A DNA stretch of 64,000 nt from IMG/VR virus record IMGVR_UViG_3300033069_001204, positions 1 through 64,000 of that record. One strand, written 5' to 3'. The notes beneath the pieces are model-generated. The model made no database searches. It was not told the origin of the DNA and worked only from the letters and a program-made list of their open reading frames with translations. Positions 6,810 through 47,072 of the stretch are shown here, piece after piece; the first letter of the stretch is position 1; the number at the start of each line of letters is the position of its first letter. This DNA is from a virus. Lineage: Duplodnaviria > Heunggongvirae > Uroviricota > Caudoviricetes. The position numbers and the translations under genes are program-made.

Positions 6810-6826
6810 TTCTATTATCCTTTCGT

Positions 6827-7747
6827 CTATTGGGGGCTTGGGGGCTTTTGAAGGGCTATAGGAGGATAGGGATCATGGGAGATGATCACTTCACCATATT
6901 TGTCGTTCGCTCCACAGGCTGCCGACTTGTGAGAGTTCCAGTCTATATATTTTATTCTATTCTGAGCAATGCGGACTGCCCATTCTGGAAAATACTCTGG
7001 AATAGGCAGCAACAGATCTGCCCCAATTCCTCGTAGATCGAGAGGCCTGAAACACATGCCATCGATTCCCCACAAAGTCTCAAGCGGCTTCATATCTGCG
7101 CCATTGAATGCCTGATGTAGAGCCAGGGCGACTCCTGGATGCTTGTTCCCTTCTATTGGGGGCCAGCCTTCGTATTCAGCGTTCTTCTCGATTTCCTCAG
7201 CATTCACTCCTGGGTCCGACATCTGGAAGCATAGATCGTCTCCAAGAATGAAGCCATCCACGCGGACCAGAATTTTGGCCATGGCGAGATCGGACAGACA
7301 CATCGAGCATTTGTGGGAGCCATCGATATAGACCAGATTGTAGATATTGCCCTGGAGCAAAGGCAGAGCCGATCTGCTGTCTCCATAGATGGTGGTTACC
7401 ATATCCCAGGCATTGGCCTTGCTGACGTTATATTCGAAGATGTGTCGATAGGCTTTCATCTCCTTGCCTGGAGCCCGATCCGCAATGTCCACGCAGGTGA
7501 GATGGCCATGTCCGTTATTGAACCTGCGGATCATCTCAATCCACATGAGGGCGGAGCCGCCGCCACGAGAGCCCACTTCCAGGATGTTCCAATACTGCCG
7601 CTCTTTCAGCAGTTTAGGGACAATGGAATAGAGCAGGGCATTGCGCTCAGGATTGAGAAGGACATCGAATTCCGAAGGCAGATAGTATCCGCCATTGGAG
7701 ATGACTTCAAGGAAATCATTTAGTATCATGGGAGGTCTCCACAGCAC
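6827..7747 (-). CDS. class I SAM-dependent O-methyltransferase, TylF/MycF (macrocin-O-MTase)-like, with a C-terminal extension
   Basis: 306 aa. ILEVGSRGGGSALMW matches the TylF-family motif E-x-G-V/S-x-x-G-G-S and is followed by an acidic VDIADR motif. Lies immediately downstream of the radical SAM/GT gene. Confidence 0.6.
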   Translation of the reverse strand: MLWRPPMILNDFLEVISNGGYYLPSEFDVLLNPERNALLYSIVPKLLKERQYWNILEVGSRGGGSALMWIEMIRRFNNGHGHLTCVDIADRAPGKEMKAYRHIFEYNVSKANAWDMVTTIYGDSRSALPLLQGNIYNLVYIDGSHKCSMCLSDLAMAKILVRVDGFILGDDLCFQMSDPGVNAEEIEKNAEYEGWPPIEGNKHPGVALALHQAFNGADMKPLETLWGIDGMCFRPLDLRGIGADLLLPIPEYFPEWAVRIAQNRIKYIDWNSHKSAACGANDKYGEVIISHDPYPPIALQKPPSPQ

Positions 7748-15730: not shown

Positions 15731-16180
15731 TTAAATGGATTTTCTTAAAATTTTTCCAGGCCAGACGTATTCCAAATCTGGAGGCTCCACCCAACCATAG
15801 CGACTATAGAACGCCGGATCTTTACGAAGAAGATTTGAGCGGTAGCTGGCATGGTATTCAGCATTCCCAAGCCATGACGGCGTGTCGATACGCATTCCAC
15901 GATCCAGCAAAGCATCCTGCTTATCCATGAAAAAGTCCAAGAGAGAATCACGAAATCCCCGCAACCTCCACTCAGCGCATATCCAGATGGCGTATTCGCA
16001 TAGGCTGGCCTCGTATCCTTTCCATTGGAGGACGGCGGGATGGCTCGACCACCCTCTCCGTCCTTCAGATAGAAGCGCTTGAAGGATCTGCTTGCACTCC
16101 ACTCTTTGCTTTCCCAGCCTCTTGTAGTCTAGGCATCTCGCAGTCAGAGCGAAGCATGCATACGGCATGAACGTCTGCAT
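15731..16180 (-). CDS. putative pyrimidine-dimer DNA glycosylase (Pyr_excise / T4 endonuclease V superfamily-like)
   Basis: 149 aa. N-terminal MQTFMPYACFALTARCLDYKRLGKQRVECKQILQAL...HPAVLQW resembles the bacterial MRLWSLHPKYLDxKGLVALWREALLAQ...HPQL family pattern. Recalled from memory, not searched. Confidence 0.4.
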   Translation of the reverse strand: MQTFMPYACFALTARCLDYKRLGKQRVECKQILQALLSEGRRGWSSHPAVLQWKGYEASLCEYAIWICAEWRLRGFRDSLLDFFMDKQDALLDRGMRIDTPSWLGNAEYHASYRSNLLRKDPAFYSRYGWVEPPDLEYVWPGKILRKSI

Positions 16181-17496
16181 TAGACCTCCCTTTGTTTTCC
16201 ATGGACCGCCCTTACAGTGGGGAACCGCAGGCTGATTTTCCCATCGGCATCCGTCGACTCCTCAAAGTAGGAGACGGTGATTGTCTTGCCAATGATCTCC
16301 TTTGGATTCTTCCTATACCTGAGCCTTTGCTGATCGGTCCAGCCGGAACCCACGCCCACCAAGTTGCCCTTGTGTCGTATCTCCGCCCTGGCCATGACCT
16401 CCTGCTCTTCCATAAGCTCGGTGTTGGGGTCCATGATGTGCTTGGTCCCAAGCTGAATGCCTTCCACGACATACTCAGCCTCATGAAACTTCTTGACCTT
16501 GAGCATGTCCTTGCTCCGCTTCCCGACGTATGGGACATCCCTGCGGAGGATGAGGCCTTCCCACCCATTGACTTCGCTCTCCTTGAGCAAGGCGGCATAG
16601 GATTCCTCAGTCACAGGAGTCTGCTCAAGGACTTCAATGCATCCAGATGGATCGACGATATCCTTCAGATTTTCCAGCCTTTTGGAAAGCGGACGTCGAT
16701 CGCTCCCACGCCCTGCCATGAATTCCTTCATGGTCAGAATATCAAAGACCTTGTATCTGGGATGGGCGATGATGAAGTTGTTCCTCCGGATCTGGGACAC
16801 TGCCTCTCTGAAGTCCTCCTTCCCATCCCGCATGATGCACATCTCACCATCAAGGACGTAGCCGGATAGGTCGACCGGCAGCGCATCGATTGATGCCTTC
16901 AGGACCTTCAAGCTTTTGAACTCCTGGCCTTTTCTCGACATGAATCTGACTTTGTCATCTATCAGGGCCAAGACCCTGACGCCGTCCAGCTTCCTGCTGG
17001 CGAACCAGGAGCCATCGAAGATATTGACGTTAGGGCAGTCGTTGAGAGATTCAGCAAGAGCCACATCGAATGTGGGAATGAGCCCTGGGAATACCTTGTT
17101 GATGATCTTCACATCGATGCGACACTTCAGGTCGCGGTCGATGATATTCCAGAACACGTCTTGGATCTTCGGGGGAAGGCTCTCAGCGAAGCGGCGGCAA
17201 TGGGCTCTCGCAATGTCCCCGGTGATCTCCCTAGTCCTCAGATGCTCGAGCAGTTGAACCAGGCTGTGCATCTCATCGTCAGCAATGTCCTTCCACATGT
17301 CGCCTTTTGCGCAGGAGGCCGATGTGACTCCGTATTGATAGAAGCTGTTGTAGGCATAGAATAGCAAAGCCTTGCAATCAGTATGCCTCCTCAAGATGGC
17401 TTCTTTCTCGGTTCTTGAGTTTGTGCCTCGGAGACTCGACACTAGAACATAGAGCTCGTTCAGTTCCTTCACAGAAATCACCTCGCATTGTCGCAT
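16180..17496 (-). CDS. ATP-dependent DNA ligase
   Basis: 438 aa. Motif I KLDGVR (SRKLDGVRVLALI) plus nucleotidyltransferase and OB-fold motifs. The N-terminus parallels the T4 ligase N-terminus. Confidence 0.9.
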   Translation of the reverse strand: MRQCEVISVKELNELYVLVSSLRGTNSRTEKEAILRRHTDCKALLFYAYNSFYQYGVTSASCAKGDMWKDIADDEMHSLVQLLEHLRTREITGDIARAHCRRFAESLPPKIQDVFWNIIDRDLKCRIDVKIINKVFPGLIPTFDVALAESLNDCPNVNIFDGSWFASRKLDGVRVLALIDDKVRFMSRKGQEFKSLKVLKASIDALPVDLSGYVLDGEMCIMRDGKEDFREAVSQIRRNNFIIAHPRYKVFDILTMKEFMAGRGSDRRPLSKRLENLKDIVDPSGCIEVLEQTPVTEESYAALLKESEVNGWEGLILRRDVPYVGKRSKDMLKVKKFHEAEYVVEGIQLGTKHIMDPNTELMEEQEVMARAEIRHKGNLVGVGSGWTDQQRLRYRKNPKEIIGKTITVSYFEESTDADGKISLRFPTVRAVHGKQREV

Positions 17497-18398: not shown

Positions 18399-19220
18399 CT
18401 ACCTGATTGGAATCATGGCCGATGGATTGTTTCCCAGCAGGAGAGTCTGCGGAGCTTGTCCATTCCACTTACGAATGGCCTCCAAGAGGATCATTGATTG
18501 TGACTGCTTCAAGGCTTCGCTCTGAATTCTCAGCGCTTCGGCCTCGCCCTTTGCTTTCGCTATCGTGGCTTCGGCTTCCTGCTGCGCCTTCTCCACAGCA
18601 TACTTGGCCGCCAGGGCCTCCTGTTCCTTCACCGTCTTTTGCTCTATTGCCTTCTCCAGGGCGTCTGTAAAATCGATGTTGGTTATGTTGACGTCAGAGA
18701 TATTAAGGATGTCGCCAACCGCTTTCTTCAGGCTAGACATTGCTGCTGCCCGGACTTCGTCGCGCTTCTTTACAATCTGATCGGCGCGATACTGGGAAGT
18801 AATCTGCTTTAAAGCCTCCTGCATTCTGGGCGATACCAAAGTCTTGAATACGCTATCTCCGGTATTGTATTCCCGGAACATGGAACATACTCGATTTTCA
18901 GGTATCGACATCAGGACGTTGTAGGAGATCTTCACAACCTGGGCGTCAGCCGTAAAGCATTCTGTGGAGTCAGACTGCATCCCGCTCTTGATGGAGACAT
19001 GATAGATTGTGGTCCAGGGAAGGGCGAAGCCAAAGCCTTCCCCAATTGCCCGGTCATCCATCTTGCCTAGGGTCACGGCTATCCCGCGTTCGCCGGGCTG
19101 GATGGTGTAGAACATCGAACAGCCTCCAATTAGGAGGAACAGGCCGATGACGAAGATGGCGATTATTGCTGAGATGGCGATTATTGCTGAGACTGATTTC
19201 ATGTTGAGTCCTTTATCCAT
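18399..19220 (-). CDS. SPFH/band-7 (prohibitin/HflC-like) membrane protein
   Basis: 273 aa. N-terminal TM helix, GERGIAVTLGK band-7 signature, C-terminal Ala/Glu/Lys coiled coil. Contains an 18-bp tandem duplication encoding AIIAISAIIAI. Confidence 0.7.
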   Translation of the reverse strand: MDKGLNMKSVSAIIAISAIIAIFVIGLFLLIGGCSMFYTIQPGERGIAVTLGKMDDRAIGEGFGFALPWTTIYHVSIKSGMQSDSTECFTADAQVVKISYNVLMSIPENRVCSMFREYNTGDSVFKTLVSPRMQEALKQITSQYRADQIVKKRDEVRAAAMSSLKKAVGDILNISDVNITNIDFTDALEKAIEQKTVKEQEALAAKYAVEKAQQEAEATIAKAKGEAEALRIQSEALKQSQSMILLEAIRKWNGQAPQTLLLGNNPSAMIPIR

Positions 19221-24854: not shown

Positions 24855-25250
24855 TTAGCCGCCTTTCGTTATGGCCTGGGCCTCCTGAATGGAGAACAGG
24901 CCGACGTTCATTATTAACGCGCGTAGCGGAGCCACCCTTGAGCAGAACACTGTCCTGCCAAGAAGCTCGCGCAATTCAGGAGTTCCAGGAAACGCGAAGC
25001 GGTCGAAGCATCCCAGCCGGGGCGCCTCAATTGCATCGCATTCCAGGATGACATGGCCGGTTCCAGGAGCCCCGCATAGCCGCAGGAACTCCTTGGCATC
25101 CTCCAATGTCCTGAAGCCCAGCAGGGGATTCTCAGCATTCTCCTGCTCTGTCGTGGCTCCTAGCTCATACTGGCGATATGCCATCCAGCCGACGAACTTG
25201 CCGTCATTCTCGGCCCCTGGGATTCTATGGACGGCCTTGTATATCTTCAT
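24855..25250 (-). CDS. hypothetical protein, a divergent member of the MK(I/V)YKAV paralog family
   Basis: 131 aa. Starts MKIYKAV like 26429..26866 and 27271..27684, with a shared G(L/F)xxxTxEDAKE/DAEAA segment. Confidence 0.45.
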   Translation of the reverse strand: MKIYKAVHRIPGAENDGKFVGWMAYRQYELGATTEQENAENPLLGFRTLEDAKEFLRLCGAPGTGHVILECDAIEAPRLGCFDRFAFPGTPELRELLGRTVFCSRVAPLRALIMNVGLFSIQEAQAITKGG

Positions 25251-26234: not shown

Positions 26235-26471
26235 TCAGCTTTCATCCAGGTTCAGCTCGTCTACGACTTGCTGGGCTCCGGCATCATAGGCCGCCCGCAG
26301 CGCCTTTTCAATTTCCTGCTCCTCAAGCTCGAAGGTCCACGAGCAGCAGTTCGATTTTTTCGGATACAGGTCGATTCCAAGATGCTTCTTGGCGATGGCC
26401 TTGAGCGCCTTCTTGATTGTGGCGTCCTTCACCTTATCCTCCTGCTCAGCGTTATGGAACTGCAAAGACAT
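26235..26471 (-). CDS. hypothetical protein (start MSLQFHNAEQED)
   Basis: The C-terminal 78 aa of ORF 26235..26633 look protein-like; the upstream part overlaps the paralog gene. Confidence 0.4.
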   Translation of the reverse strand: MSLQFHNAEQEDKVKDATIKKALKAIAKKHLGIDLYPKKSNCCSWTFELEEQEIEKALRAAYDAGAQQVVDELNLDES

Positions 26472-26866
26472 GCCGATTTCGATCCGGGCTGCGGCGACCC
26501 GGATACGTGAAGCGGCGTGCGCTCCCAGAACACCCGGATGGGAAACACGAACTGGTATGGCACATATGTCCCTAAGCCATACCCTGCACAAGGATGTGAG
26601 ATCCAGCCTAGGAAGTCCGCATCGGCTTCCCATATCTCCGCCATGCCCTCCTTCGAGCAGGCCAGAGCTTCAGCCGCTTCAGCATCTGTGAAAGCATACA
26701 GGCCAGATCCGGCTATTGTCGGCTTCGTCGCAACTCCAGGCTCATATAGAAGCGACAGCTCGCCATCTCCTATGTAGGCGTTTCCTCCTCCGCCCCCCGG
26801 CTCACGTATTACACCCCAGCTGTAGAGCCGGCCGCCATAAGGTGTGACCGCCTTGTAGACTTTCAT
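26429..26866 (-). CDS. hypothetical protein, MKVYKAV paralog family
   Basis: 145 aa. Paralog of 27271..27684: LLYEPGVATKPTIAGSGLYAFTDAEAA versus LLYRPGVATKPVIPNSGLYAFTDRDAA. Both end with GLCSSIT. Confidence 0.55.
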   Translation of the reverse strand: MKVYKAVTPYGGRLYSWGVIREPGGGGGNAYIGDGELSLLYEPGVATKPTIAGSGLYAFTDAEAAEALACSKEGMAEIWEADADFLGWISHPCAGYGLGTYVPYQFVFPIRVFWERTPLHVSGSPQPGSKSACLCSSITLSRRIR

Positions 26867-27270: not shown

Positions 27271-27684
27271 TCAGGCCACCCTATGCTTAGGAGTTATTGA
27301 GCTGCAAAGGCCGGCGGATTCGGAACCCGAGCATTCCACCGGATAGAGCTCTAGCGGGGTTTCCGCCCAGAACTTGATGTGGTCGGCATGGCTGCATATC
27401 CATTGGGCTCCGGCGCGCGGGTGGCTGATATAGCCCAGGAACTCCGCCTCGCATTCCCAGACTTGCATGCATGGATACCTGTCTGAAAACGCAACTGCGG
27501 CATCCCTGTCCGTGAAGGCGTATAGGCCTGAATTGGGAATGACAGGCTTCGTCGCAACTCCAGGCCTGTAGAGCAGCGAAACAACGCCGTCCCCTAGCCC
27601 GGCAAGGCCTGCAGCATTTTTACAGGTCACGTTGAAGCTGTGGAGCTGGCTGCCCGATGCATACAAGACTTTGTAGACTTTCAT
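27271..27684 (-). CDS. hypothetical protein, MKVYKAV paralog family
   Basis: 137 aa; see 26429..26866. Confidence 0.55.
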   Translation of the reverse strand: MKVYKVLYASGSQLHSFNVTCKNAAGLAGLGDGVVSLLYRPGVATKPVIPNSGLYAFTDRDAAVAFSDRYPCMQVWECEAEFLGYISHPRAGAQWICSHADHIKFWAETPLELYPVECSGSESAGLCSSITPKHRVA

Positions 27685-28341: not shown

Positions 28342-29692
28342 TATAAGCCTCTATTCACTTAGGCCCATAATGGGAATGGGCCGGAACTCCGGTATGGAGA
28401 ACCGGCCAGCTTCCCGTCTTCAATTTCCCGGACTTGGCGCCCTTCAGCTATTCGCCTATCGCGCTGGCTATTCGAATTCCTTGCGGCCCTTCGCTCCCTA
28501 GCTACCGCCGCCTATCCATTCGCATGCCCGGCAAAGCCCAGCCATTCCTATGATGGAGAATGGCCGTCCTTCACCTTCGTCTCGTTGACTATTGTCGTCC
28601 CGTCCAACCCCTTTATGGGAGCCTTGGCATCTGGAGCCCTTTAGCCCGAATAGGCCCTTGATTATTTAATTGGCCTATGGAATTCATCTCCAGCCCTTTT
28701 GCGGCTTCCCAATATTCGATTGGGGGATTTCCTCCTTGAGGGAATTCTGATTCCCTTGGATCTTTCAATGAGCACCGGAGCCTCTAGCGCTCCTTCAATG
28801 ATTCCATTATAGAATGGGATTGCAGAATAGGCAATAGCTTTTTCCGAAAATTTTCGGAAAATAATGGAGACCCTGGAATTGTCCCTGTGGAGCCTGCATC
28901 CCTGGGCGCAGGGTCGAGCCTAATGAGTCCTTAGAGTGGAGTCCTTAAGGCCAATATAGGCTCTTTTTCAGGGCCGGAATCCCAGGGATTCCCTATTCCT
29001 TATTATATAAAGGGAATTTCAGGGGCCAAAACCACGGCCATGGAATCCGGCCATTCCAGCAAAACACGAATCCCATGATGCCATAGGACTATGATATGGG
29101 GAATCCCATGATGTGGGAATACGGGCCATGCAATGCCAGACAGGGAATGACGCCATCCCTGGGAGCCGGGCCGGGCGGGGACGGGGATGGCCCTTATATG
29201 GGAAAGAGGGGAGGGGAGGCGGGACGGAATCCCAGGGGCCTGGGGGCCGGCCGGGCCGCGCGCCGGGGGAGGCTCCCCTCCTCGTGACATTCTCTCGTGA
29301 CATTCTCTCACGACATTCTTTCCATGGCATCAGGCCCATTCCCGGTCTCTTTCCATGGCATCAGGCCCATTCCCTATTCGCCATCCAATCCTCTCCCCTT
29401 ATGGCCTTCCCTATATGCCTTCATCATATCTTTCCCCACATATCCCTCCCATGCCTTTCCTCTATGGGAATATTATGGCCTTCCCTATATCTCTCCATTA
29501 TAATATATAGTTCTCCATATAGGCCTGTCTCCATATATCCATGGTCTCCCCTATTATATTCCCATAGCCATAGTCTCCGGATTTCTCCCCCCGGAAAATT
29601 ATGTCTTCCGTGACAGACATGAAAACCGGCTGTTGGTCTTTTCCTGTATTCCCTATATATTATCCTAGCCAAACCAATAAGGAGTCCATCCA
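28342..29692. promoter_or_regulatory. 1.35 kb non-coding divergent region packed with iterons and palindromes (candidate origin, pac site or regulatory switch)
   Basis: - Only compositionally biased short ORFs.
- Contains: an 8-bp inverted repeat at 28338-28374; a 20-bp perfect palindrome tttccgaaaattttcggaaa at 28841-28860; GGAATCCC(A) at 28976 (itself palindromic), 29068, 29101 and 29226; three tandem 13-bp units at 29283-29321; a 24-bp repeat ttccatggcatcaggcccattccc at 29320-29343 and 29351-29374; atggccttccctatat at 29401 and 29476; a G-run tract at 29160-29280.
- Plus-strand composition switches from C-rich to G-rich across it. Confidence 0.7.
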
Positions 29693-29965
29693 ATGTTCAG
29701 CAATCCGTTCCGTGTCCTTCTGAGGACAGCCCTTAGATTCTTCAGCGCTTCCGGCCTCCTCAACGGGGATAGGGTGCGCAGGACAGAGGATCTATGCAGC
29801 CGCCTTTGTAGATACGGAGATGTCGGATATTCCGAATATCGTGATGAGATCGGAATCGTCGAGCCGAATCCTGATTTTCCCCATGCTTTGGTGAATGTGC
29901 GCTGGATCGGGTCGGGGAAAGTGGATGTCATAAATCCGGAGAACCTTGAATTGGTGGAGCCATGA
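29693..29965 (+). CDS. hypothetical protein (SD aaggag)
   Basis: 90 aa. First gene of the rightward operon. Confidence 0.5.
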   Translation: MFSNPFRVLLRTALRFFSASGLLNGDRVRRTEDLCSRLCRYGDVGYSEYRDEIGIVEPNPDFPHALVNVRWIGSGKVDVINPENLELVEP

Positions 29966-30837
29966 ACATCCTCTACAGGCATCGCAGATTCGGACAACGG
30001 GCATTGCGGACAATCGGGCTGGCCAATGAGATCATTTCCGAGTATCAGGATCAAGGCTTCTCCCTGACCTTGCGCCAGCTCTATTATCAATTCGTGGCCA
30101 GGGGGCTCATTCCGAATTCCCAGCGGGAATACAAGAACCTGGGTTCCGTAGTGGACGATGCCCGCATGGCCGGCCTCATTGACTGGCTGGCCATAGAGGA
30201 TCGCACCAGGAATCTCAGGACCCTGCCTTGCTGGAAATCGCCAAAGGACATAATGTCCGCTGTCGTCGGCCAATACCGCACCGATCCCTGGCTTCTGCAG
30301 TCCAGCCATGTGGAGGTCTGGATTGAGAAGGATGCCCTTGTCGGAGTCATTGAACGCGTCTGCAATAAATGGCGGGTCCCCTTCTTCGCATGTCGCGGCT
30401 ACAACTCCCAGTCCGAACAATGGGCTGCCGGCCGTCGCATGCTGGACGCCTCTGTCGCCGGATATGAGCCCATTGTCCTGCATCTTGGCGATCATGATCC
30501 ATCCGGGATAGATATGACCAGGGACAATGAGGAGCGCCTGTCTTTATTTGCGGAGGGTCCGGTGGAGGTCCGGCGGCTCGCCCTGAACATCAATCAGGTC
30601 AGGAAGCATAATCCTCCTCCCAATCCCGCCAAGGAGACTGATTCGCGCTGCAGTTCCTATGTAAGCCGCTTTGGAAATTCAAGCTGGGAGCTGGATGCCT
30701 TGGATCCCAGAATAATAGAATCCCTGATTGATTCCGAGATACAGTCCATCATAAGTCCATCCAAGTGGAAGGAGGCCATGGCCAATGAGGAATCGGGACG
30801 GGATGCTCTAATTGCCGCTATGGAGGACATGGAATGA
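29962..30837 (+). CDS. compact Spo11/topoisomerase VI subunit A-like protein (CAP/wHTH with a YY motif + TOPRIM)
   Basis: 291 aa. SLTLRQLYYQFVARGLIPN is like the catalytic-tyrosine region RxxYY of Top6A/Spo11. VEVWIEKDALVGVI supplies the TOPRIM Glu (EKD). LHLGDHDPSGIDM matches the TOPRIM DxDxxG motif of Top6A (DADPYGIEI). Confidence 0.55.
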   Translation: MNILYRHRRFGQRALRTIGLANEIISEYQDQGFSLTLRQLYYQFVARGLIPNSQREYKNLGSVVDDARMAGLIDWLAIEDRTRNLRTLPCWKSPKDIMSAVVGQYRTDPWLLQSSHVEVWIEKDALVGVIERVCNKWRVPFFACRGYNSQSEQWAAGRRMLDASVAGYEPIVLHLGDHDPSGIDMTRDNEERLSLFAEGPVEVRRLALNINQVRKHNPPPNPAKETDSRCSSYVSRFGNSSWELDALDPRIIESLIDSEIQSIISPSKWKEAMANEESGRDALIAAMEDME

Positions 30838-31127
30838 TAGTCGTGGAATCGGGCTTTGTCACGATGACATGCCAGACAGTCCTTGAAGGAGGCCTCGGCC
30901 CTGAAGGCGAGTTGTTCTGTCGCCTTATGGATATCTCCGGAATTCTGGAGGTTGGCGGCGTATTCGATATCTGCTTCTATGAATCATGCCGCCTCATTAG
31001 CCGCAGGGTCAGCCCTGAGGATGCCGAGGTCCTCCGGAATATTCTGAAGTCCGGGAGGCCAATGACAATGAAAGGATACGACCATGGCATGCGTGATCAT
31101 ATGGGAATGTGGAAGCGAAACACATAA
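30834..31127 (+). CDS. hypothetical protein
   Basis: 97-aa ORF. Confidence 0.4.
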   Translation: MIVVESGFVTMTCQTVLEGGLGPEGELFCRLMDISGILEVGGVFDICFYESCRLISRRVSPEDAEVLRNILKSGRPMTMKGYDHGMRDHMGMWKRNT

Positions 31128-31256
31128 GTCAAGAGCAGACGCTGAATGCATTTCCAATAGAGGCCACATTAATCTCTCAAATGGAATTCAACGAAATATT
31201 GGAAATTCATTCAATGGAACATTATATTCTTGGAGAATATATAATGGAGAGGACTA

Positions 31257-31574
31257 ATGCGCATAACGATATCTAAAGATTTTACAGATGCTCCAGGAGG
31301 AAGATATATTAAAAATGGTGATTTTTCTGGAGAGTATTTTAGAGAAAAACATTTGGTTCCTGCATTTGACAGGCTCTCTAAAGGAGAAAAACTTATCGTA
31401 AATCTTGATGGTTGTTTTGGATTTGTGACAAGTTTCCTTGAGGAGGCCTTTGGAGGGCTTGCTAGGGAAAAAGGGACAAATGTCGTTCTAGAAAGAATTG
31501 AAATAGAAGATACTGAACAGCCAGAGCGCATAGAGTTGATCAAGTCGTATATTAAGAATGCAAATAACAAATGA
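31257..31574 (+). CDS. STAS-like (DUF4325-type) small protein in an AT-rich moron
   Basis: 105 aa. KLIVNLDGCFGFVTSFLEEAFGGL resembles the DUF4325/STAS pattern (xDFxGVxxISSSFxDEaFG). Local GC is much lower than the flanks. Confidence 0.4.
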   Translation: MRITISKDFTDAPGGRYIKNGDFSGEYFREKHLVPAFDRLSKGEKLIVNLDGCFGFVTSFLEEAFGGLAREKGTNVVLERIEIEDTEQPERIELIKSYIKNANNK

Positions 31575-31583
31575 AGGCTTTAA

Positions 31584-31829
31584 ATGTTAATGGCAATTGA
31601 ACTTATTAAATTGTTGGTGCAAATAGGCCTTGCGACTGCCATTTGTTATCTTGGATATAAACTTTCTGCTTTTAGAGCTGCAAATGAGAAGAAAATAGAG
31701 GTTTGCCTTAAGATTTATGATGAGCTCATATGTGCATTTAATAATGAAGAAGAATTTATAAGAAGTGCAGAAAAAACTGGCCGTAAAGATGAGGTTGTTA
31801 AGCTTGTATTCTCAGGGACAAGGCACTAG
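31584..31829 (+). CDS. small membrane protein (N-terminal TM helix) in the AT-rich moron
   Basis: 81 aa. LLVQIGLATAICYLGY is a hydrophobic helix. Co-directional with the STAS-like gene, 10 nt downstream of it. Confidence 0.45.
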   Translation: MLMAIELIKLLVQIGLATAICYLGYKLSAFRAANEKKIEVCLKIYDELICAFNNEEEFIRSAEKTGRKDEVVKLVFSGTRH

Positions 31830-31888
31830 AAACTTGGAATTACTGGCACGCAGCTGATACTCAAAAACATCAATAGGAGGACATCATA

Positions 31889-32137
31889 ATGGATTTCAGC
31901 GACGCGTTACTACATCTCAAAGCTGGAAGCAAGATTCGCAGAGAGGGATGGAATGGCAAAGGGATCTTCGTAGGAATGGCCGAACCCGGACCCAGCCCGG
32001 ATCTATTCACTGCTCGATGCCTATACATTGACACTACGGGGCTCCGGACCAAAAACAAGAAAGCCCCCAAGTGTCGGGTTCCATGGCTGCCAAGCCATAC
32101 GGATATTCTAGCGGAGGATTGGGAGCTGCTCAAATGA
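31889..32137 (+). CDS. DUF2829-family protein (Thoeris anti-defence Tad2-like)
   Basis: 82 aa. MDFSDALLHLKAGSKIRREGWNGKGIFVGM matches the DUF2829 N-terminal signature ALxxLKxGxKxxRxGWNGKGxF. SD aggagg. Confidence 0.5.
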   Translation: MDFSDALLHLKAGSKIRREGWNGKGIFVGMAEPGPSPDLFTARCLYIDTTGLRTKNKKAPKCRVPWLPSHTDILAEDWELLK

Positions 32138-32607: not shown

Positions 32608-33318
32608 GTGTGGAGCCTGCGGACGGAAAGTCAGAAGAATAGGAAACCAAGGAAGGCGCAGATGCCAAAACCTAAATTGAAGCTACAGCCATCCAAGCCC
32701 AAGGCCAAGCCCAGGACGGCGAAGGTCAAGGAGGCCGACGACATTGCCTTGGAGCCGGTCGTCCAGGCCTTCTTCGATAAGCTGCCGGCAAGCCATCAGG
32801 TCAAACCCTCCAGCATGCCTTTGGCTCTAGGCCCGGAGGGCGTGGACTCATGGCTTGCCGGCAGCCCCCAGAAGTTGAAGGATGCCTGCGACGCATACTT
32901 CGAGTCCGTGGATATGCGGAACCTCGCCTTCCAGGACAACAACCCGAAGGCCGAGACGAAGATACCATACACGCATCAAGGCCTATGTCTGTTCCTTGGC
33001 CTGCTCGATCGTTCCAATCTCATCACCCTCCTGAAGTCGGATCCCCATAAGCCGATCATGGCCACAGCCATTCTCCGCATCGAACAGGATATTGTGGAGG
33101 GGACGCTGATGGGAGCATTCAATCCCAAGATGTCCAGCATGTATCTCACGCAATGTCTGGCCTGGCTCGATGGCCGGGGTTCGAAAGGCGGCGGCCCGCG
33201 CTCCGTGGAAGGCTCTGGCGTCCAAATCAACTTCGTGAGTGTGGAGTCCCCGGAGGATTTGAAACGGCTCAATGAGGCCAGGAAGCAGCCCGTCCTTGAC
33301 GTGGGCCAGGAGGACTAG
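32608..33318 (+). CDS. putative terminase small subunit (alternative start ATG 32662, MPKPKLK, with SD aaggaagg)
   Basis: Basic N-terminus followed by a helical domain. Lies immediately upstream of, and nearly abutting, the TerL gene. Confidence 0.5.
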   Translation: MWSLRTESQKNRKPRKAQMPKPKLKLQPSKPKAKPRTAKVKEADDIALEPVVQAFFDKLPASHQVKPSSMPLALGPEGVDSWLAGSPQKLKDACDAYFESVDMRNLAFQDNNPKAETKIPYTHQGLCLFLGLLDRSNLITLLKSDPHKPIMATAILRIEQDIVEGTLMGAFNPKMSSMYLTQCLAWLDGRGSKGGGPRSVEGSGVQINFVSVESPEDLKRLNEARKQPVLDVGQED

Positions 33319-33321
33319 ACC

Positions 33322-34773
33322 ATGGGTTCCGGAACCATTATTCTAAATGTCCTGACGTCCAAAGTCTTCCGTAAGATAAAGGAGGCGGCCGGTCCCTATT
33401 TGACTGAGGAGGAACGCAACGCCAGGATAGCCAGGGGCGAGACGATGTCCGAAGTCCGACACATTGTGCTGTCTGGCTCCAGCCGCTCAACAAAGACCTA
33501 TAGCGCGCTGCAGTTCATAATAAGCTGTTGCCTTGCGAATCCCGGACTTCAATGCGCCATCATAAGGGCCAAGCTGACCTGGCTCCGCAAGACAGTCTTC
33601 AAGGATTTCGTCAAGATCATGCACATGGCAGGGCTCTGGGATCCCTCCAGGATGAACAGGTCCGAGTGGGAATACACTTTCGACAACGGCTCCCAGATCT
33701 CATTCATAGGAATGGACCAGGATGCCGGCTTCGCAAAGGTCCACGGCATGAAGACCGACCTGGCCTTCTATAATGAAATAACGGAGCTCAGCTATGACCA
33801 CGTCCGTCAGGTCGATATCCGAAATACCTGGCTCCAGATCTACGACTTCAACCCGAACTGTCCGGAGCGTTACTGGATCTATGAACGCATCCTGTCCCAG
33901 ACCGGGAAGGCCGTCCACATCCATTCTACATATAAGGACAATCCATTCCTGGAGCGTCGCGTCGTGGAGAGCATCGAAGCCTATGAGCCGACCCCTGCCA
34001 ACATAGCGAGAGGGACCGCCGACAAGACATTCTGGGATATCTATGGCCTGGGCGTCCGCGGCACCATCTCCGGGCTGGTGTTCACCAATTGGAGGATGGT
34101 CAAGGACCTGCCGGATAAGCTGGACAAGCCTGGATATGGAATGGACTTCGGATTCACAAACGACCCCACCACCTTGACATTCTGCGGGCAGACCCCCGGA
34201 GAGATCTGGGTGGATGAGCTCATATATGAACGGGACCTCGTCAATCTATGCGTGCCGAACAATCCGGGCATCCGAAGCATAGAGGGCGAGATGCTCAGGC
34301 TCAAGGTCAAGAAGACCCTGCCGATGTATTGCGAGTCGGCCGAACCCAAGACGGTCAGGGATATGCAGAATGCCGGCTTCAATGCCATTCCGGTCGTGAA
34401 GGGTCCGGGCAGCGTGGTGGCCGGCATCACAGGCATGAAGCGATTCAGGCTGAATGTCACGGAGCGTAGCATCCATATCATAGCCGAGCTCGGCAACTAT
34501 AAGTGGAAGGATCAGAAAGGGTCCCTAGGGGAGGCGTTCGTCAATGAGCCCGTGGACGCCTGGAACCATTGCCTGGACGGCATACGCTACTACGTGATGT
34601 CCTGCGAACCTGGAAGCTGCATGGTGGAGCAGGGCAGGACCGAGATGCTGCCAATAAGAGTGGGACGCGGAGTGGCCAGCCGCAAATATGACATGTATCA
34701 GGGTCCCGATAATGAAGAGGGACAGGAGGCCCATCGCAGATGGCTGGATGCCGTATCCCAGCGAAGTCAGTGA
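33322..34773 (+). CDS. terminase large subunit (ATPase + RNase H-like nuclease)
   Basis: 483 aa. Walker A VLSGSSRSTKTY; nuclease motifs GMDFGFTNDPTTL and DAWNHCLDGIRYYV. Confidence 0.9.
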   Translation: MGSGTIILNVLTSKVFRKIKEAAGPYLTEEERNARIARGETMSEVRHIVLSGSSRSTKTYSALQFIISCCLANPGLQCAIIRAKLTWLRKTVFKDFVKIMHMAGLWDPSRMNRSEWEYTFDNGSQISFIGMDQDAGFAKVHGMKTDLAFYNEITELSYDHVRQVDIRNTWLQIYDFNPNCPERYWIYERILSQTGKAVHIHSTYKDNPFLERRVVESIEAYEPTPANIARGTADKTFWDIYGLGVRGTISGLVFTNWRMVKDLPDKLDKPGYGMDFGFTNDPTTLTFCGQTPGEIWVDELIYERDLVNLCVPNNPGIRSIEGEMLRLKVKKTLPMYCESAEPKTVRDMQNAGFNAIPVVKGPGSVVAGITGMKRFRLNVTERSIHIIAELGNYKWKDQKGSLGEAFVNEPVDAWNHCLDGIRYYVMSCEPGSCMVEQGRTEMLPIRVGRGVASRKYDMYQGPDNEEGQEAHRRWLDAVSQRSQ

Positions 34774-40087: not shown

Positions 40088-40948
40088 TCACGTGCTGGAT
40101 AGGAATCCCATCAAAGCCTTATCGAAGGACGGCTGGGCCTGCACAGCCAGCGTGGCCACCTCCTGAAGTATGGAGGTGTCATCCATTTCCCATTTGGGGC
40201 TGAGCTCGACCTCATCCCAACGCGTATACTTGCGGAGCGGGAGCTGCGACGCTATGAAATCCATTCCCTTGACGGAGCCGCCATCCAGCATATACTCAAT
40301 GAGAGGCTTCGCCCATCGGATTAGCGACCATGAATTGGCTCCAGACACATCCATCGTATCGTCCTTGACGTGCCCGGTCCCAACGCTGAATACCGCGATG
40401 TCCTTCATTTCCATGCTGAATGTCTTGGAGAGCCCGGCAGCCAGGACCGCCGAAGGACAGTTGGCCCACAGGCCGCCATCGGCGTAGCCATTGCATATTG
40501 GGAAATAGGTGGGAGCGCTGACGCTATATAGGATGGCATCGCGAATTAGGACGTCGCCATCCTGGTCGCCTGTGGACGAGAATACTTTGGGTTTCTTATT
40601 GGCGAGATCGGAGGCCGTTATGTAGAGCGGCTTCTGGACATGCTTCATTGGCATGTCGCCGAATACTTTGACCAGGAACTTGATCAAGGCATCATTGGGA
40701 TACTTTGAGCAGCATGGATTCATATTGCGATACCATGGAGCGTGGAATATGTCTGGCAGATAGTCCATGAGGAGGGCCGGCAGCTTGGCAGGGTCCTCGC
40801 CTATGGCATAGTATGCCGCTATGGGAGCGAATATGGAAGTGGCCCCGAAGGCATCGAATATTGAATATGGACTGTAATTTGCAAAGGCAATGGCAGGGAT
40901 CAGTCCGAAGATCCCGCCTCCGTCTCCAGCTAACGCCCGTTTGATCAT
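40088..40948 (-). CDS. patatin-like phospholipase with a non-canonical nucleophile elbow
   Basis: 286 aa. GDGGGIFGLIPA matches the patatin DGGGIRG oxyanion motif. YADGGLWANCP matches the catalytic Asp motif DGGxxxNNP. The expected GxSxG instead reads FGATSIF. Confidence 0.65.
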   Translation of the reverse strand: MIKRALAGDGGGIFGLIPAIAFANYSPYSIFDAFGATSIFAPIAAYYAIGEDPAKLPALLMDYLPDIFHAPWYRNMNPCCSKYPNDALIKFLVKVFGDMPMKHVQKPLYITASDLANKKPKVFSSTGDQDGDVLIRDAILYSVSAPTYFPICNGYADGGLWANCPSAVLAAGLSKTFSMEMKDIAVFSVGTGHVKDDTMDVSGANSWSLIRWAKPLIEYMLDGGSVKGMDFIASQLPLRKYTRWDEVELSPKWEMDDTSILQEVATLAVQAQPSFDKALMGFLSST

Positions 40949-43883: not shown

Positions 43884-46800
43884 TCAAAGCTCCGCTGTTA
43901 AGTCTATATATGTTGTGGCATCCAAAGTGGAAAAATAGAAATTGCCTGCTGCTGTAACTGTCGCATAGATATTAACTGAATTGTCTCCAGTAGTTCCTAC
44001 TGAGGGTTGGCCGCAATTACTTACACTCCAAGTTCCTGTTTTAGTCGCAGTAGGAGCTGCTCGCATCTTAGGAAACGCCATTGAAAAGCCAGATATTCCT
44101 GAAGATGATCCATAGCCTCTTAACCAAACATTAGCCAGACGATTAAAATACCGCCTACATTGTTGCGTATCTATGTCGGGATCGCATGGTATGAATTGCG
44201 TCGCGGTCTGGCCTTTCTCCAGCTTGACATTTGCTACGTAGAAAGTATTGGACGTCGAGTCCATGGCGTTGACTTGATTTGCAGTTCCATAAATTGCCGC
44301 TGCAGCAGTTGTCCAGGCATCGAGTGTGGATGTCTGGAAGTTGCTGCCGCATGCCAGGACAAAATTGACTCGTAAAGATACTGTGTTGTCCGTAGAAAAT
44401 GTTGGGCCGGACACATCAAGCGTTACGGGGAATGAGAAATACGTCCAAGTATTGGCGTCCGTTATCTCGCATTCATGCACAAAACTATAGCTGTTTCCGA
44501 CGTCAGCTAGGACAGCACAATAGGTTCCTACTTTGGACGCCCGAAGCCAAAACGACAAGGTCACATAGCCACCAAGGAATGGAGATATAATTGTGCCCTC
44601 AATACGTTGCTGCACTCGATAGACATCTGTCGAGGCTATTGACGTGTCAGCAGTAGTCACGCTGACCTCAAGTGATGTGGTGGAGGATACTCTGGCTTCT
44701 GTATAAGATGGGACGGTGGTGCTTTGCGATAGCGTCACTAGTCCTGCCCCTACATATGTCCACTGCCAACAATCCAACGCATACTGGTTATTGGCTGTTA
44801 TGGCTGTGGAAGTCCCACGCTGGGCTATTCTAAAACTCCCGTTCCTCATGATATTGTCATTAATGACGGACAAGTCCAGCGGAGTGACATACTCTACAGC
44901 AGGGCGGTCGATGATCAATAATGTATTGGCGTCAAGAACTATGGCAATAGGCTTGAGATAGTGCCCCTCAGTCGTGGTTCCAGTCTCTGTCATATCTCCT
45001 GCAGACGTATCGGATACATACAGCACAGGACCCGTGAATCCATGGGACGTATAGGTGTAGCGGCCGATTGGGCAGAATACAAAATTATTGGCATCCACAA
45101 CAGAGGACACCAGACCCACAGACTCGACAGATTCTATGCTGTCGGCCTGCGCCAGCGCGTAGCTGCCATCTGCCAGTTTAGCCACAGCTTGATTGACAGA
45201 AAAACCATGGCTTGTGGAAGCGACTGCAACGGCTAAGGTATCCCCGCTTGCGCCTGCGTTATCGTCCACATACTTCTTGTTCGCCGCTTGATAGTCTGTA
45301 GTAGGCGCAGAACTTGGCGTGATGGGGAAGCTTGAGAACGTCTTGATGCCACCCACAGTCTCATCGCCGGAAGTAGCAACTGCGCCAGCTTGAGCCGCCG
45401 TTACGCTATGCGGATTCGATGTGCTGGAAATATGGTTTTGAATATTTGCATTAGCGGGTTCGTAGACGCCGCTATGCGTATGGTTTCCCGCTGCTGCTTG
45501 CGCTGAACCTGTCCCCAATGTATGATGTAGAGAGCTTGCGCTTGAATCAGTATCGGGACTCTCATGCGTGTTGGCTTGCACCAGCTTGTTCGAGCTATGG
45601 TCATGATCTAGCGGCGTCCTAGCGTCGCTGTTGCGGGAATCATTGTCAGTTACATATTTATTGGATGATGATGGCGTTCCGCTTGTCCCTGCCAATGCGG
45701 CTTTTTCATCGCTGCTTGGAATGTTGCCATGTGCATAAGTTGATTCATGCGTAGAGACGGCGCTGGAAGCTGCCCCGCTTGCATCTGCTCCAACATCGGA
45801 AGCAGATAATGTAATATCGCTGGAAAGAGCCTTACTATTGATTGTCCGTGTGCTTGGGACTATGCCGCCGTGGGCTGTCGTGGTGTAGCCCGTGTGGGTA
45901 TTGAGATTGCCTTGGACAGTGGCGGCGGCTCCGCTGGCGTCTGCGCCTACGTCGGAGTAGGTCAAAGCTATTCCATCGATCTTATAGCTCTGTCCGCTCG
46001 GGATATTGACAGAGCCTGAATCATCCGCAGTAACCAGGGAGTTCTGTATAAGCTTCCCTGTGGTGGAATCGAAGCGGACTATGGCATTATCAGTAGAAGA
46101 CGCAGGTCCGGAAACATCGCCTAATCCCGATACGGAATCGTCCACATACTTCTTTGTAGAAGCCTGATAGTCTGTAGTCGGAGTGGGGACCAGCGGAGAG
46201 CTGCTGAATGTCTTTATTCCAGCTATTGTCTCATTGCCGCTAGTAGCCACAGCCCCAACGTCAGATGCGGCTAATGTGATGTCGCTAGACAGAGCCTTGC
46301 TATTGACTGTGCGGCTAGTAGGGACCGCTCCAGCCTGCGCCGCTGTCACGCTATGTGGATTGCTTGTGTTGTTTATATGGGTGGTAAGATTGCTCTGGAC
46401 TGCGGAGGCCGCTCCAGCTGCGTCGAAGCTCGCGCTAGACAGACCGCCGTCCTTGATAAGCTTTCCTGTTATACCGTCGAATTGGACTAGGTTACCATCG
46501 GTGGAGTTTGCAGGTCCATACACGTCTCCGGTCCCTGCCGGCATATCGTAGCTGAAGTTGCCAGCACCGTCATTCTTAAGGTAGCCTACGGCATCTGCGA
46601 TATTGGCGACGTCGCCAGTTTTCTGGAAGACTGAAGAAACCGCTCCGCCATTTTCATCCACATACTTCTTTGTGGCCACCTGATAGTCAGTTGTTGGCGT
46701 AGGGACTATAGGAGAGCTAGAAAAGGTCTTTATGCCAGCAACGGTCTCATTGCCCGTTGTAGCCACTGCTCCAGCCTGCGCGGCAGTCACTTCATGCGGA

Positions 46801-47072
46801 TTGGCGACATCACTGAGGTGAATGGTCAGATTGGACTGGACGGTTGCTGCGGCTCCACTGACATCAAAACTAGATGGCGAGTATCCTGAGTCTTTTAGCG
46901 CTTTGCCAGTGGTCCCGCTGAAGGATACAAAGTTCCCATCTACGGAACTTGCCGGACCGATGACTGTTCCATTAGAGAGGCCTATCAGAGTGGTCTGGAT
47001 GACTGCCACAGGTCCCATCGAAGCAGACTGGATGACTGTGACTGGATTTAGAGTCATGGTGAGCTCAGGCAC
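43884..47072 (-). CDS. long tail fibre protein with three copies of the phage tail-fibre repeat
   Basis: 1062 aa. The repeat (V/L)TAAQAGAV(A/P)T-GNETVAGIKTFSSSPIVPTPTTDYQVATKKYVD occurs three times, each followed by DSG/GASG. Ser/Thr/Ala-rich. C-terminal globular domain. Confidence 0.8.
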   Translation of the reverse strand: MPELTMTLNPVTVIQSASMGPVAVIQTTLIGLSNGTVIGPASSVDGNFVSFSGTTGKALKDSGYSPSSFDVSGAAATVQSNLTIHLSDVANPHEVTAAQAGAVATTGNETVAGIKTFSSSPIVPTPTTDYQVATKKYVDENGGAVSSVFQKTGDVANIADAVGYLKNDGAGNFSYDMPAGTGDVYGPANSTDGNLVQFDGITGKLIKDGGLSSASFDAAGAASAVQSNLTTHINNTSNPHSVTAAQAGAVPTSRTVNSKALSSDITLAASDVGAVATSGNETIAGIKTFSSSPLVPTPTTDYQASTKKYVDDSVSGLGDVSGPASSTDNAIVRFDSTTGKLIQNSLVTADDSGSVNIPSGQSYKIDGIALTYSDVGADASGAAATVQGNLNTHTGYTTTAHGGIVPSTRTINSKALSSDITLSASDVGADASGAASSAVSTHESTYAHGNIPSSDEKAALAGTSGTPSSSNKYVTDNDSRNSDARTPLDHDHSSNKLVQANTHESPDTDSSASSLHHTLGTGSAQAAAGNHTHSGVYEPANANIQNHISSTSNPHSVTAAQAGAVATSGDETVGGIKTFSSFPITPSSAPTTDYQAANKKYVDDNAGASGDTLAVAVASTSHGFSVNQAVAKLADGSYALAQADSIESVESVGLVSSVVDANNFVFCPIGRYTYTSHGFTGPVLYVSDTSAGDMTETGTTTEGHYLKPIAIVLDANTLLIIDRPAVEYVTPLDLSVINDNIMRNGSFRIAQRGTSTAITANNQYALDCWQWTYVGAGLVTLSQSTTVPSYTEARVSSTTSLEVSVTTADTSIASTDVYRVQQRIEGTIISPFLGGYVTLSFWLRASKVGTYCAVLADVGNSYSFVHECEITDANTWTYFSFPVTLDVSGPTFSTDNTVSLRVNFVLACGSNFQTSTLDAWTTAAAAIYGTANQVNAMDSTSNTFYVANVKLEKGQTATQFIPCDPDIDTQQCRRYFNRLANVWLRGYGSSSGISGFSMAFPKMRAAPTATKTGTWSVSNCGQPSVGTTGDNSVNIYATVTAAGNFYFSTLDATTYIDLTAEL

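Follow-up and report, generated by a model that had tools for sequence, protein, structure and literature searches.

Spo11, which makes the meiotic double-strand breaks of eukaryotes, requires partners, and to our knowledge Top6A, the A subunit of topoisomerase VI, is not an active nuclease alone, without its B subunit; a lone A-like protein may therefore need a partner as well. The established chemistry of Top6A and Spo11 yields a 5'-phosphotyrosyl link and a free 3'-OH (PMC10123090). Stand-alone homologs of the A subunit have been described in viruses as the Mini-A family (Takahashi et al. 2020, NAR Genom Bioinform; PMC7671362), the signatures of which are a length of about 300 aa, an RxxY/FY motif, a TOPRIM Glu with DxDxxG, an xWELDAL box, a viral origin and the lack of a B subunit. 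The xWELDAL box is the version of the T2BI box that sets Mini-A apart from Topo VI and Topo VIII, and the same authors leave room for a host or viral Mini-A partner (PMC7671362). The existence of Mini-A, the small size of its members, the missing B subunit and the confinement to viruses are thus already known, having been published in 2019/2020. A rolling-circle initiator role was proposed by Medvedeva et al. for the Mini-A of skuldviruses, in analogy with HUH proteins; in skuldviruses no further replication gene has been identified. The role of Mini-A is described as unexplored in a review as late as 2024, and targeted literature searches found no functional study or published assay of any Mini-A.

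The gene considered here lies in a window of 64,000 nucleotides (the whole stretch of DNA that was analysed). The source is an uncultured phage of some 89 kb, and no cultured phage has a TerL that exceeds 35% identity to its own. The ORF is a true gene and no chance ORF, because the homolog search found at least 8000 homologs and PHROG 6247 ("DNA topoisomerase") is matched over the full length (E=3e-110). At E<=1e-3 the family comprises 11,303 cluster representatives (clusters at 50% identity), and most Mini-A relatives are 290-306 aa long. The translation agrees exactly with the ORF and motifs given in a preliminary description of this DNA, with TLRQLYYQFV at residues 36-45, IEKD at 121-124 and GDHDPSG at 176-182, and a Shine-Dalgarno-like GGTGGAG precedes the start codon. 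The features are listed in the table. The antisense ORF is taken to be a shadow ORF. The 90-aa upstream ORF is probably co-translated with Mini-A. As a conserved small partner it was rejected, being an orphan with itself as the sole database match, and the small ORFs that precede Mini-A in PaMx25, Sano and SPN19 are unrelated to it. The 97-aa downstream ORF has no PHROG or Pfam match and is absent from 80 related viral loci.

Features of the Mini-A gene and its immediate surroundings (positions in the window)
Feature	Position	Strand	Description
Mini-A gene	29962..30837	+	ATG start, 291 aa plus stop; stand-alone type IIB topoisomerase A-subunit homolog
N-terminal winged-helix / truncated 5Y-CAP domain	29995..30297	+	residues ~12-112; motif LTLRQLYYQF
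R38	30073-30075	+	invariant Arg in LTLRQLYYQF
Y42	30085-30087	+	predicted catalytic Tyr in LTLRQLYYQF
TOPRIM domain	30304..30582	+	residues ~115-207
E122	30325-30327	+	predicted metal-binding Glu in EVWIEKDAL
D177	30490-30492	+	in HLGDHDPSG
D179	30496-30498	+	in HLGDHDPSG
PPPNPAK motif	30613..30633	+	residues 218-224; strongly conserved
SWELDAL	30682..30702	+	residues 241-247; 'xWELDAL' T2BI box
C-terminal helix pair	30706..30825	+	residues 249-263 and 266-288; secondary structure of high-confidence model
Upstream 90-aa ORF	29693..29965	+	stop overlaps Mini-A start (ATGA); called as gene on JGI contig
Downstream 97-aa ORF	30834..31127	+	start overlaps Mini-A stop
Antisense ORF, 276 aa	29665-30495	-	overlaps Mini-A gene

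The product of this gene is almost certainly a typical representative of the known Mini-A family. It is short, as the preliminary description had noted, with 291 aa and the Tyr at position 42, compared with 369 aa and the Tyr at about 106 in M. mazei Top6A, and it carries RxxY/FY, the TOPRIM Glu with DxDxxG and the xWELDAL box. It is encoded by a virus, as seen from terS, terL, a tail fibre and a head protease gene in the window, and it has no B subunit nearby: the earlier statement to this effect held up, as the window ORFs of at least 250 aa, and the part of the shorter ORFs that was scanned, yielded no GHKL/Bergerat ATPase domain. Homologs were counted in 83 records of cultured phages and in 559 stretches of IMG/VR, and some belong to phages of Listeria, Salmonella and Pseudomonas, hosts that are also named in PMC7671362; sequence identity is 46-56% to the homologs carried by phages that infect cyanobacteria, actinobacteria, firmicutes and proteobacteria. 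The cultured-phage orthologs include PaMx25 gp51, Sano gp37, SPN19 gp26 and Pam3 gp41. In GenBank and other database labels the cultured-phage homologs are called 'DNA topoisomerase', and in some records 'DNA binding protein'. A search of NCBIfam with Mini-A gave no match, and no PDB sequence was matched at E<=10, whether the query was the protein alone or one of two profiles. Mini-A had been brought in before only as a comparison; the SWELDAL box and PHROG 6247 make the protein a Mini-A itself. A copy in a phage packaging operon had likewise been called unusual. Because Mini-A is phage-borne by definition, a location in a phage is no oddity but the rule (PMC7671362). The protein resembles the other members of the Mini-A subfamily (PHROG 6247) in everything tested, and nothing of substance is different, except that this copy is on the terminase strand and outside the replication gene block.

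R38, Y42, E122, K123, D177, D179 and G182 are invariant across 128 representatives, and R38, Y42, E122, D177 and D179 are kept in homologs as distant as 19% identity. The RxxYY motif reads here R38-Q-L-Y41-Y42, in which Y41 varies to H or A in relatives, and DxDxxG reads D177-H-D179-P-S-G182, downstream of E122. In the T2BI box, W242-L247 are at least 90% conserved among the 128 representatives, and E243 is unchanged in homologs down to 19% identity. The PPPNPAK motif shows no variation among close Mini-A homologs; P219 and K224 reach at least 90% conservation in each of the two representative alignments, and N221 does so in the 128-member alignment only. The helix pair at the C terminus is variable in sequence and poorly conserved in the alignments, and a dimerisation or regulatory role for it would be only a guess. 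Among the 150 best representatives listed, four carry an intein inserted three residues before E122. Intein homing to the TOPRIM glutamate motif is a mark of an important active site; a literature search found no paper naming an intein together with Mini-A. The label 'DNA binding protein' on some GenBank homologs and the lack of any reported Mini-A activity so far would suit a DNA-binding or regulatory protein that has retained the fold alone, but the invariance of the five cleavage residues, down to the most distant homologs, and the targeting of the active-site motif by inteins make such a non-catalytic protein highly improbable.

Mini-A shares the fold of Top6A (CAP plus TOPRIM). The CAP-like winged helix, the TOPRIM domain, the catalytic Arg and Tyr, the Glu with DxD and the kinship with Top6A and Spo11, all of which had been proposed before, were supported. 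The superposition on Top6A covers only about half of the chain, and Foldseek with a first, poorer Mini-A model gave no match. In hhalign, Mini-A and a purpose-built Top6A/Spo11 alignment are collinear with every catalytic residue paired, at a weak score (P ~0.03, probability ~2%), and the PPPNPAK segment aligns collinearly with the 'YDLPTD' segment of Top6A in the profile alignment. Pfam TP6A_N matches Mini-A at E=0.23 and 11.7 bits, below the cut-off of 26, and Pfam TOP6A-Spo11_Toprim matches only 2 of 17 Mini-A members, the best at E=0.009, below threshold. Compared with a Topo VI holoenzyme, the protein thus stays below the Pfam thresholds, and it also lacks the full 5Y-CAP and an adjacent Top6B gene (GHKL plus transducer). 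Archaeal and plant Top6A (PDB 1d3y, 2zbk, 2q2e) has about 64 N-terminal Top6B-binding residues that are missing in Mini-A, is partnered by a B subunit with its ATPase whereas Mini-A has neither, and bears the Topo VI version of the T2BI box instead of WELDAL. Spo11 (PDB 8urq/8uru) acts with a Top6B-like and other partners, whereas Mini-A has no conserved partner and its break-making is hypothetical. Topo VIII, a plasmid-borne type IIB enzyme in single-chain or split form, is like Mini-A in residing on mobile elements, in lacking the N-terminal half of 5Y-CAP and in having the same cleavage residues (PMC7671362); it differs in its fused or adjacent Bergerat ATPase and its RVELNAM box, both of which are absent from Mini-A.

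Mini-A might instead be a true topoisomerase, which would manage the topology of replicating phage DNA either with an unrecognised ATPase (a phage 'Mini-B' or a host GHKL protein, e.g., GyrB/ParE) or as an ATP-independent relaxase or decatenase. Mini-A belongs to the type IIB A-subunit lineage, its residues for reversible transesterification are invariant, it is labelled 'DNA topoisomerase' in databases and found in replication modules, and a partner has been left possible (PMC7671362). However, in addition to the lack of a GHKL ATPase in the scanned ORFs of the window, none was found among the 25 families listed (of 37 matched) for the genes flanking Mini-A in 65 loci, and Mini-A is without any conserved neighbour. 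We therefore regard a true topoisomerase as unlikely, and with no ATPase subunit, ATP-driven strand passage by Mini-A is also unlikely.

A JetD-like defence nuclease or an anti-defence function had been suggested as well. In such a reading Mini-A would serve host takeover, cleaving the host's DNA or one of its defence elements, on the model of the stand-alone Toprim nucleases MksG/JetD and the OLD family. No specific support for this was found. A PADLOC defence-model search with Mini-A gave no match at E<=10, no SMC-like JetC/MksB domain is present in the window ORFs scanned, the JetABC/MksBEF genes are absent, and DUF2399 is matched weakly by only 3 of 17 Mini-A members. MksG/JetD, the nuclease of MksBEFG/Wadjet (PDB 8b7f), is host-encoded and has no tyrosine candidate in its CAP-like domain (PMC10123090), whereas Mini-A is phage-encoded and keeps both the Arg and the Tyr. 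Moreover, the 46-56% identity across phages of distant phyla would be atypical of arms-race genes, and the usual neighbours of Mini-A are replication genes, not accessory islands. These observations make an anti-defence nuclease quite improbable. The window does hold a Tad2-like gene; a low-GC island parts it from Mini-A.

The preliminary description placed the gene in the packaging operon, and this stands only in part. Mini-A shares its strand with terS (32608) and terL (33322), and the replication genes of the window are on the other strand; however, terS is about 1.8 kb downstream, and between the two lie four small ORFs, two of which form an island of 34-38% GC with promoter-like sites. 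In relatives, Mini-A is found among replication and recombination genes, both in cultured phages and in 66 viral contigs, and eight annotated phage contexts are all early replication or nucleotide-metabolism regions. For example, the order in PaMx25 is ligase, small ORF, Mini-A and RecA; in BKO1-3 Mini-A follows a polymerase exonuclease subunit; in phi38:2 it is followed by one small ORF and a VirE primase; and in LWP01 it precedes the polymerase within the early region. The closest metagenomic relatives have NAD-ligase, a small ORF, Mini-A and an SNF2 helicase, with a DUF5906 primase further downstream. Within 10 kb of Mini-A in the 66 viral loci, an SF2 helicase occurs in 30%, UvrD in 14%, DnaB in 11%, a primase in 11% and a sliding clamp in 6%, whereas a large terminase occurs in 7 of the 66 (~11%), always downstream and on the same strand. 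This frequency is expected if Mini-A often lies last in an early or middle module bordering on the late operon.

A packaging-associated endonuclease, nicking or cutting concatemers or making genome ends for the terminase, would fit the shared strand and the short distance to terS in the window, as well as the seven loci with a terminase downstream. It is at odds with the 89% of sampled loci (n=66) that have no terminase within 10 kb, with the early regions in which annotated phages carry the gene and with the low-GC island and its promoter-like sites ahead of the terminase genes. Furthermore, the TerL of the window matches terminase large-subunit PHROGs, and the terminase large-subunit family carries its own nuclease domain. 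A packaging endonuclease is thus very unlikely: the position of Mini-A near the terminase is a minority arrangement without a functional link, and Mini-A most probably stands outside the packaging machinery.

A conserved neighbour of any kind was also rejected. When 2204 ORFs from 81 loci were clustered by blast, the best co-occurring cluster was present in just 13 of 67 loci, and Mini-A is the only window gene in a cluster common to another locus. Among the 130 genes flanking Mini-A most closely, each Pfam family matched was present in three at most. Since the gene surroundings differ from locus to locus and contain no constant partner, the argument from context is statistical and not specific.

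Taken as a whole, the explanation that we moderately favour is a Mini-A protein that makes a transesterase cut in phage replication or recombination; that this cleavage is the role of Mini-A is, taken by itself, a tentative assignment that we put close to an even call. The invariant residues point to a Mg2+-dependent tyrosine transesterase, which, by analogy with Top6A, Spo11 and MksG, probably works as a homodimer. A DNA phosphodiester is the predicted target of Y42; the protein would end up joined to the DNA through a 5'-phosphotyrosyl bond, a 3'-OH would be left free, and the phage DNA would so acquire a nick or a double-strand cut at the replication or recombination stage. The cut could then prime rolling-circle or recombination-dependent replication and concatemer formation, or it could relieve a topological problem. 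The HUH rolling-circle initiators (phage P2 gpA, phiX174 A) offer a functional analogy only, in the attack by a Tyr, the 5' linkage and the 3'-OH primer; their fold and metal site are unrelated to those of Mini-A, whose nicking is hypothetical.

In a stronger and more doubtful form of this proposal, Mini-A might be a phage 'Spo11', a partner-free Top6A-like protein that makes a programmed nick or double-strand break, remains covalently bound to the 5' end and exposes a 3'-OH that launches rolling-circle or recombination-dependent replication and concatemers. A repeat-dense non-coding region (28342-29692) lies directly upstream of the 90-aa ORF. It could be a candidate cis target of such a Mini-A.

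The discovery value of this locus is small, as the Mini-A family is already published and its cultured homologs are already annotated. What the window adds is context: the proximity to the terminase as a minority arrangement, the lack of a conserved partner and the inteins at the TOPRIM glutamate motif. The biological question still matters, since Mini-A is abundant, unusually well conserved and in possession of all Spo11/Top6A cleavage residues, and what a lone A subunit is capable of bears on the control of cleavage in Spo11 and Topo VI and on the origin of the type IIB family. If Mini-A does act as a phage 'Spo11', it would represent a mechanism of replication initiation undescribed for tailed phages and would be a plausible stand-alone ancestor of the Topo VI/Spo11 cleavage subunit.

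The protein under study is an ordinary member of a family that has already been published. Mini-A, as Takahashi et al. 2020 defined this subfamily of A subunits of type IIB topoisomerases, comprises proteins of ~300 aa that lack the N-terminal half of the 5Y-CAP. An RxxY/FY motif supplies their conserved Arg and their catalytic Tyr, a Glu and DxDxxG lie in their TOPRIM domain, and a C-terminal xWELDAL box sets them apart from Topo VI and Topo VIII; they are carried by viruses and proviruses without a B subunit, and their function was given as unknown (PMC7671362). All of these sequence features are present in the protein of the window (R38-Q-L-Y41-Y42, E122, D177-H-D179-P-S-G182 and S241-WELDAL-247), and the motifs quoted in the preliminary description, TLRQLYYQFV (36-45), IEKD (121-124) and GDHDPSG (176-182), were found exactly in the translation. 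PHROG 6247 ("DNA topoisomerase") matches residues 3-289 with E = 3e-110. Pfam lacks a model for these proteins, its sole match being a sub-threshold one to TP6A_N (residues 23-44, E = 0.23), and no matches were found in NCBIfam, PADLOC or PDB sequences. Homologs in the database number at least 8000, and in a whole-library profile search 11,303 representatives of 50%-identity clusters matched Mini-A at E ≤ 1e-3, 2565 of them at E ≤ 1e-30. These numbers show that the gene is real. Its ATG, preceded by a Shine-Dalgarno-like GGTGGAG, overlaps the stop of a 90-aa ORF (ATGA), and its stop overlaps the start of a 97-aa ORF. Because the homolog evidence falls on the plus strand, the antisense ORF covering most of the 5' two-thirds of the gene is taken to be a GC-rich shadow ORF.

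Features of the window (NA, nucleotides)
Feature	Position (NA)	Strand	Remarks
860-aa protein	within 4227-7747	-	weak N-terminal radical-SAM match, E = 3e-4
Methyltransf_24 protein	6827-7747	-	adjoins the 860-aa protein
SNF2 helicase	12076-13698	-	early/replication block
ATP-dependent ligase	16180-17496	-	early/replication block
SPFH/Band-7 protein	18399-19220	-	PF01145, E = 8e-26
Small protein 1	24855-25250	-	N-terminus MKIYKAVHRIPG
Small protein 2	26429-26866	-	N-terminus MKVYKAVTPYGG
Small protein 3	27271-27684	-	N-terminus MKVYKVLYASGS
Non-coding gap	28342-29692		1.35 kb, repeat-dense
Palindrome in gap	28840-28861		TTTTCCGAAAA|TTTTCGGAAAA
Tandem repeat in gap	29281-29319		CTCGTGACATTCT, three copies
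Perfect 27-nt direct repeat in gap	29317, 29348		two copies
Antisense ORF	29665-30495	-	276 aa
Mini-A	29962-30837	+	ATG start, 291 aa
Low-GC island	31100-31900		34-38% GC vs 53-59% in flanks
Promoter-like sites in island	31199-31228, 31281-31310
DUF4325 gene	31257-31574	+	in low-GC island
81-aa ORF	31584-31829	+	in low-GC island
Tad2-like/DUF2829 protein	31889-32137	+	82 aa; PF11195; phrog_872, E = 4e-20
terS	32608-33318
terL	33322-34773
Patatin-like phospholipase	40088-40948	-	PF01734, E = 9e-10
Tail fibre	43884-47072
Head protease	53869-55362
821-aa ORF	55416-57881	-	no PHROG or Pfam match
1958-aa ORF	57884-63760	-	no PHROG or Pfam match

The Mini-A motifs are invariant in 31 close homologs. 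Among 17 sequences down to 19% identity, which include phages of Cellulophaga, Bacteroides, Flavobacterium, Listeria and others, R38, Y42, E122, K123, D177, D179, P180, G182 and E243 are invariant, and Y41 is replaced by H or A; Y42 is therefore the nucleophile. In 128 representatives the invariant residues are R38, Y42, N52, W75, R83, E122, K123, G146, S149, D177, D179, G182 and L208, and WELDAL is conserved to at least 90%. The catalytic Tyr and the TOPRIM Glu and Asp residues, whose conservation had been proposed as a check, are thus invariant in all three sets. Further conserved motifs are EDRTR, CRGYxSQSE and PPPNPAKxTDSR.

To relate the family to Top6A and Spo11, we built an alignment from verified Spo11 and Top6A sequences of the PDB plus 414 Top6A homologs with PF04406, PF20768 and PF21180, and compared it with Mini-A alignments using hhalign. 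The match is collinear over 193 columns with weak statistics (P ~0.03, HH probability ~2%), and within this weak alignment LTLRQLYY of Mini-A pairs with STLREMYY, E122 with the Top6A/Spo11 Glu (Spo11 E233), and D177 and D179 with DGDP/DADP (Spo11 D288 and D290). Pfam scans of individual Mini-A homologs gave scattered and weak matches, the best being E = 1.6e-4 for DUF2399 (the C-terminal Toprim of JetD), 0.0024 for TP6A_N and 0.009 for TOP6A-Spo11_Toprim. Given such weak statistics and matches, the kinship with Top6A is remote; what supports it is the architecture, the identity of the motifs and the fold, in line with published work that treats Mini-A as a separate, deeply diverged clade. The preliminary description named failure to superpose on Top6A as a refuting result, and this result did not occur, although about half of the chain, and no more, superposes; the Spo11/TopoVI-A-like structure that it put forward was right.

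Top6A and Spo11 act by Mg2+-dependent transesterification, leaving a 5'-phosphotyrosyl link and a free 3'-OH (PMC10123090). Mini-A would act in this way too, judged from its invariant winged-helix Arg/Tyr and Toprim Glu/DxD, which make up the complete catalytic set of these enzymes; the alternative at this point is a non-catalytic DNA binder. The structurally similar Wadjet nuclease MksG lacks the CAP tyrosine, whereas Mini-A keeps Arg/Tyr there, which brings it closer in mechanism to Top6A and Spo11; a role as an anti-defence or host-DNA nuclease is a further alternative. ATP-driven strand passage is unlikely because Mini-A has neither an ATPase nor a Top6B-binding segment. No GHKL ATPase was found in any window ORF of at least 250 aa, in agreement with the earlier remark that a B-subunit gene is missing nearby, and the alternative of a topoisomerase would call for an undiscovered partner. 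Most probably, Mini-A would nick or break phage DNA in replication or recombination. For the Mini-A of skuldviruses, Medvedeva et al. put forward a part in starting rolling-circle replication, and a 2024 review lists the role of Mini-A as unexplored.

The window derives from an uncultured tailed phage whose TerL shares at most 35% identity with that of any cultured phage; the longest database contig with an identical Mini-A protein is 88,985 bp. Early and replication genes lie on the minus strand (~8 to 28.3 kb), parted by the non-coding gap from a plus-strand unit that runs from the orphan 90-aa ORF through Mini-A, the 97-aa ORF, the low-GC island, the Tad2-like gene and a small ORF (130 aa as called on the JGI contig) to terS and terL. 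The island, which separates Mini-A from the terminase genes, has the look of a moron gained recently. It follows from this gene order that Mini-A, placed in the packaging operon by the preliminary description, shares its strand with the terminase and lies upstream of it, yet is not embedded in such an operon. The Tad2-like protein belongs to the family of Tad2, the anti-Thoeris sponge. The gap, directly upstream of the Mini-A cassette and between divergent units, is a candidate for an origin or a regulatory hub. It is packed with short repeats, among them two copies of GAATCCCATGATG and a GGAATCCCAGGG family whose members point either way, and cumulative GC skew reaches its minimum at ~29.7 kb.

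Mini-A homologs occur in 83 cultured-phage records, annotated as "DNA topoisomerase", "DNA topoisomerase VI", "DNA binding protein" or hypothetical, and we examined the neighbours in eight of them. In PaMx25 the order is primase/helicase, MazG, RNase H-like, ThyX, ligase, small ORF, Mini-A and RecA, with a RecB-like exonuclease and a helicase farther downstream. Pam3 has a helicase and RNR; Mini-A lies farther downstream, and after it come HNH, radical SAM and aGPT-Pplase genes. Mini-A lies among nucleotide-metabolism and early genes in Sano and SPN19, next to a polymerase exonuclease subunit, NinB and a resolvase in Bacteroides BKO1-3, and near a VirE primase and 7-deazaguanine genes in Cellulophaga phi38:2. 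In Flavobacterium FPSV-S1 a helicase and an exonuclease are encoded on the other strand, a few kb upstream of Mini-A, and in the temperate Listeria LWP01 Mini-A is in the early lytic region between switch and polymerase. The closest metagenomic relatives show the order NAD-ligase, small ORF and Mini-A, with an SNF2 helicase and a DUF5906 primase farther downstream. Iterated HMM searches within 10 kb of Mini-A in 66 IMG/VR loci (~10 kb of flank per side) found SF2 helicase in 30%, UvrD in 14%, DnaB and VapE/DUF5906 primase in 11% each, and sliding clamp and PDDEXK exonuclease in 6% each. No conserved neighbour emerged: the best blast cluster occurs in 13 of 67 loci, and of 130 flanking genes, 3 at most share any one Pfam family. 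The large terminase is within 10 kb in 11% of the loci (7/66), each time downstream on the same strand. The unusual association with packaging claimed in the preliminary description is not right. The arrangement in the window is therefore a recurring minority pattern, as would be expected if Mini-A often closes an early/middle module next to the late operon; the alternative that bears on this arrangement is a packaging nuclease.

Several cultured phages with Mini-A also carry DNA-hypermodification gene sets: phi38:2 (locus L091; FolE/QueF/TGT-like 7-deazaguanine genes ~2-5 kb downstream of Mini-A), Pam3 (L001; aGPT-Pplase and radical SAM genes), PaMx25 (L002) and SPN19 (L004). PaMx25 and NP1 are Queuovirinae members. 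In the window, the 860-aa and Methyltransf_24 proteins may together be a module that modifies nucleic acids or metabolites. The three small proteins (131-145 aa) have near-identical N-termini, the second and third also having longer common blocks (e.g. GVATKPxIxxSGLYAFTD), and appear to be a paralogous family of the early region. The 1958-aa and 821-aa products are presumably virion or injected proteins, given their position near the head protease.

Inteins were found in 4 of the 150 best listed Mini-A representatives (homologs P0182, P0193, P0238 and P0258; 653-712 aa). They are ~370 aa long and are inserted at the equivalent of E118|V119 (nt 30313-30318), three residues before the TOPRIM Glu, with Cys1 at the start, HN at the end and then Cys+1; they carry the LAGLIDADG motif GLYLAEG and match LAGLIDADG_3, Intein_splicing and Hint in Pfam. 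A literature search found no paper naming an intein together with Mini-A. To the published family, the present analysis thus adds its scale, the absence of any conserved partner, the extra conserved motifs and the LAGLIDADG inteins.
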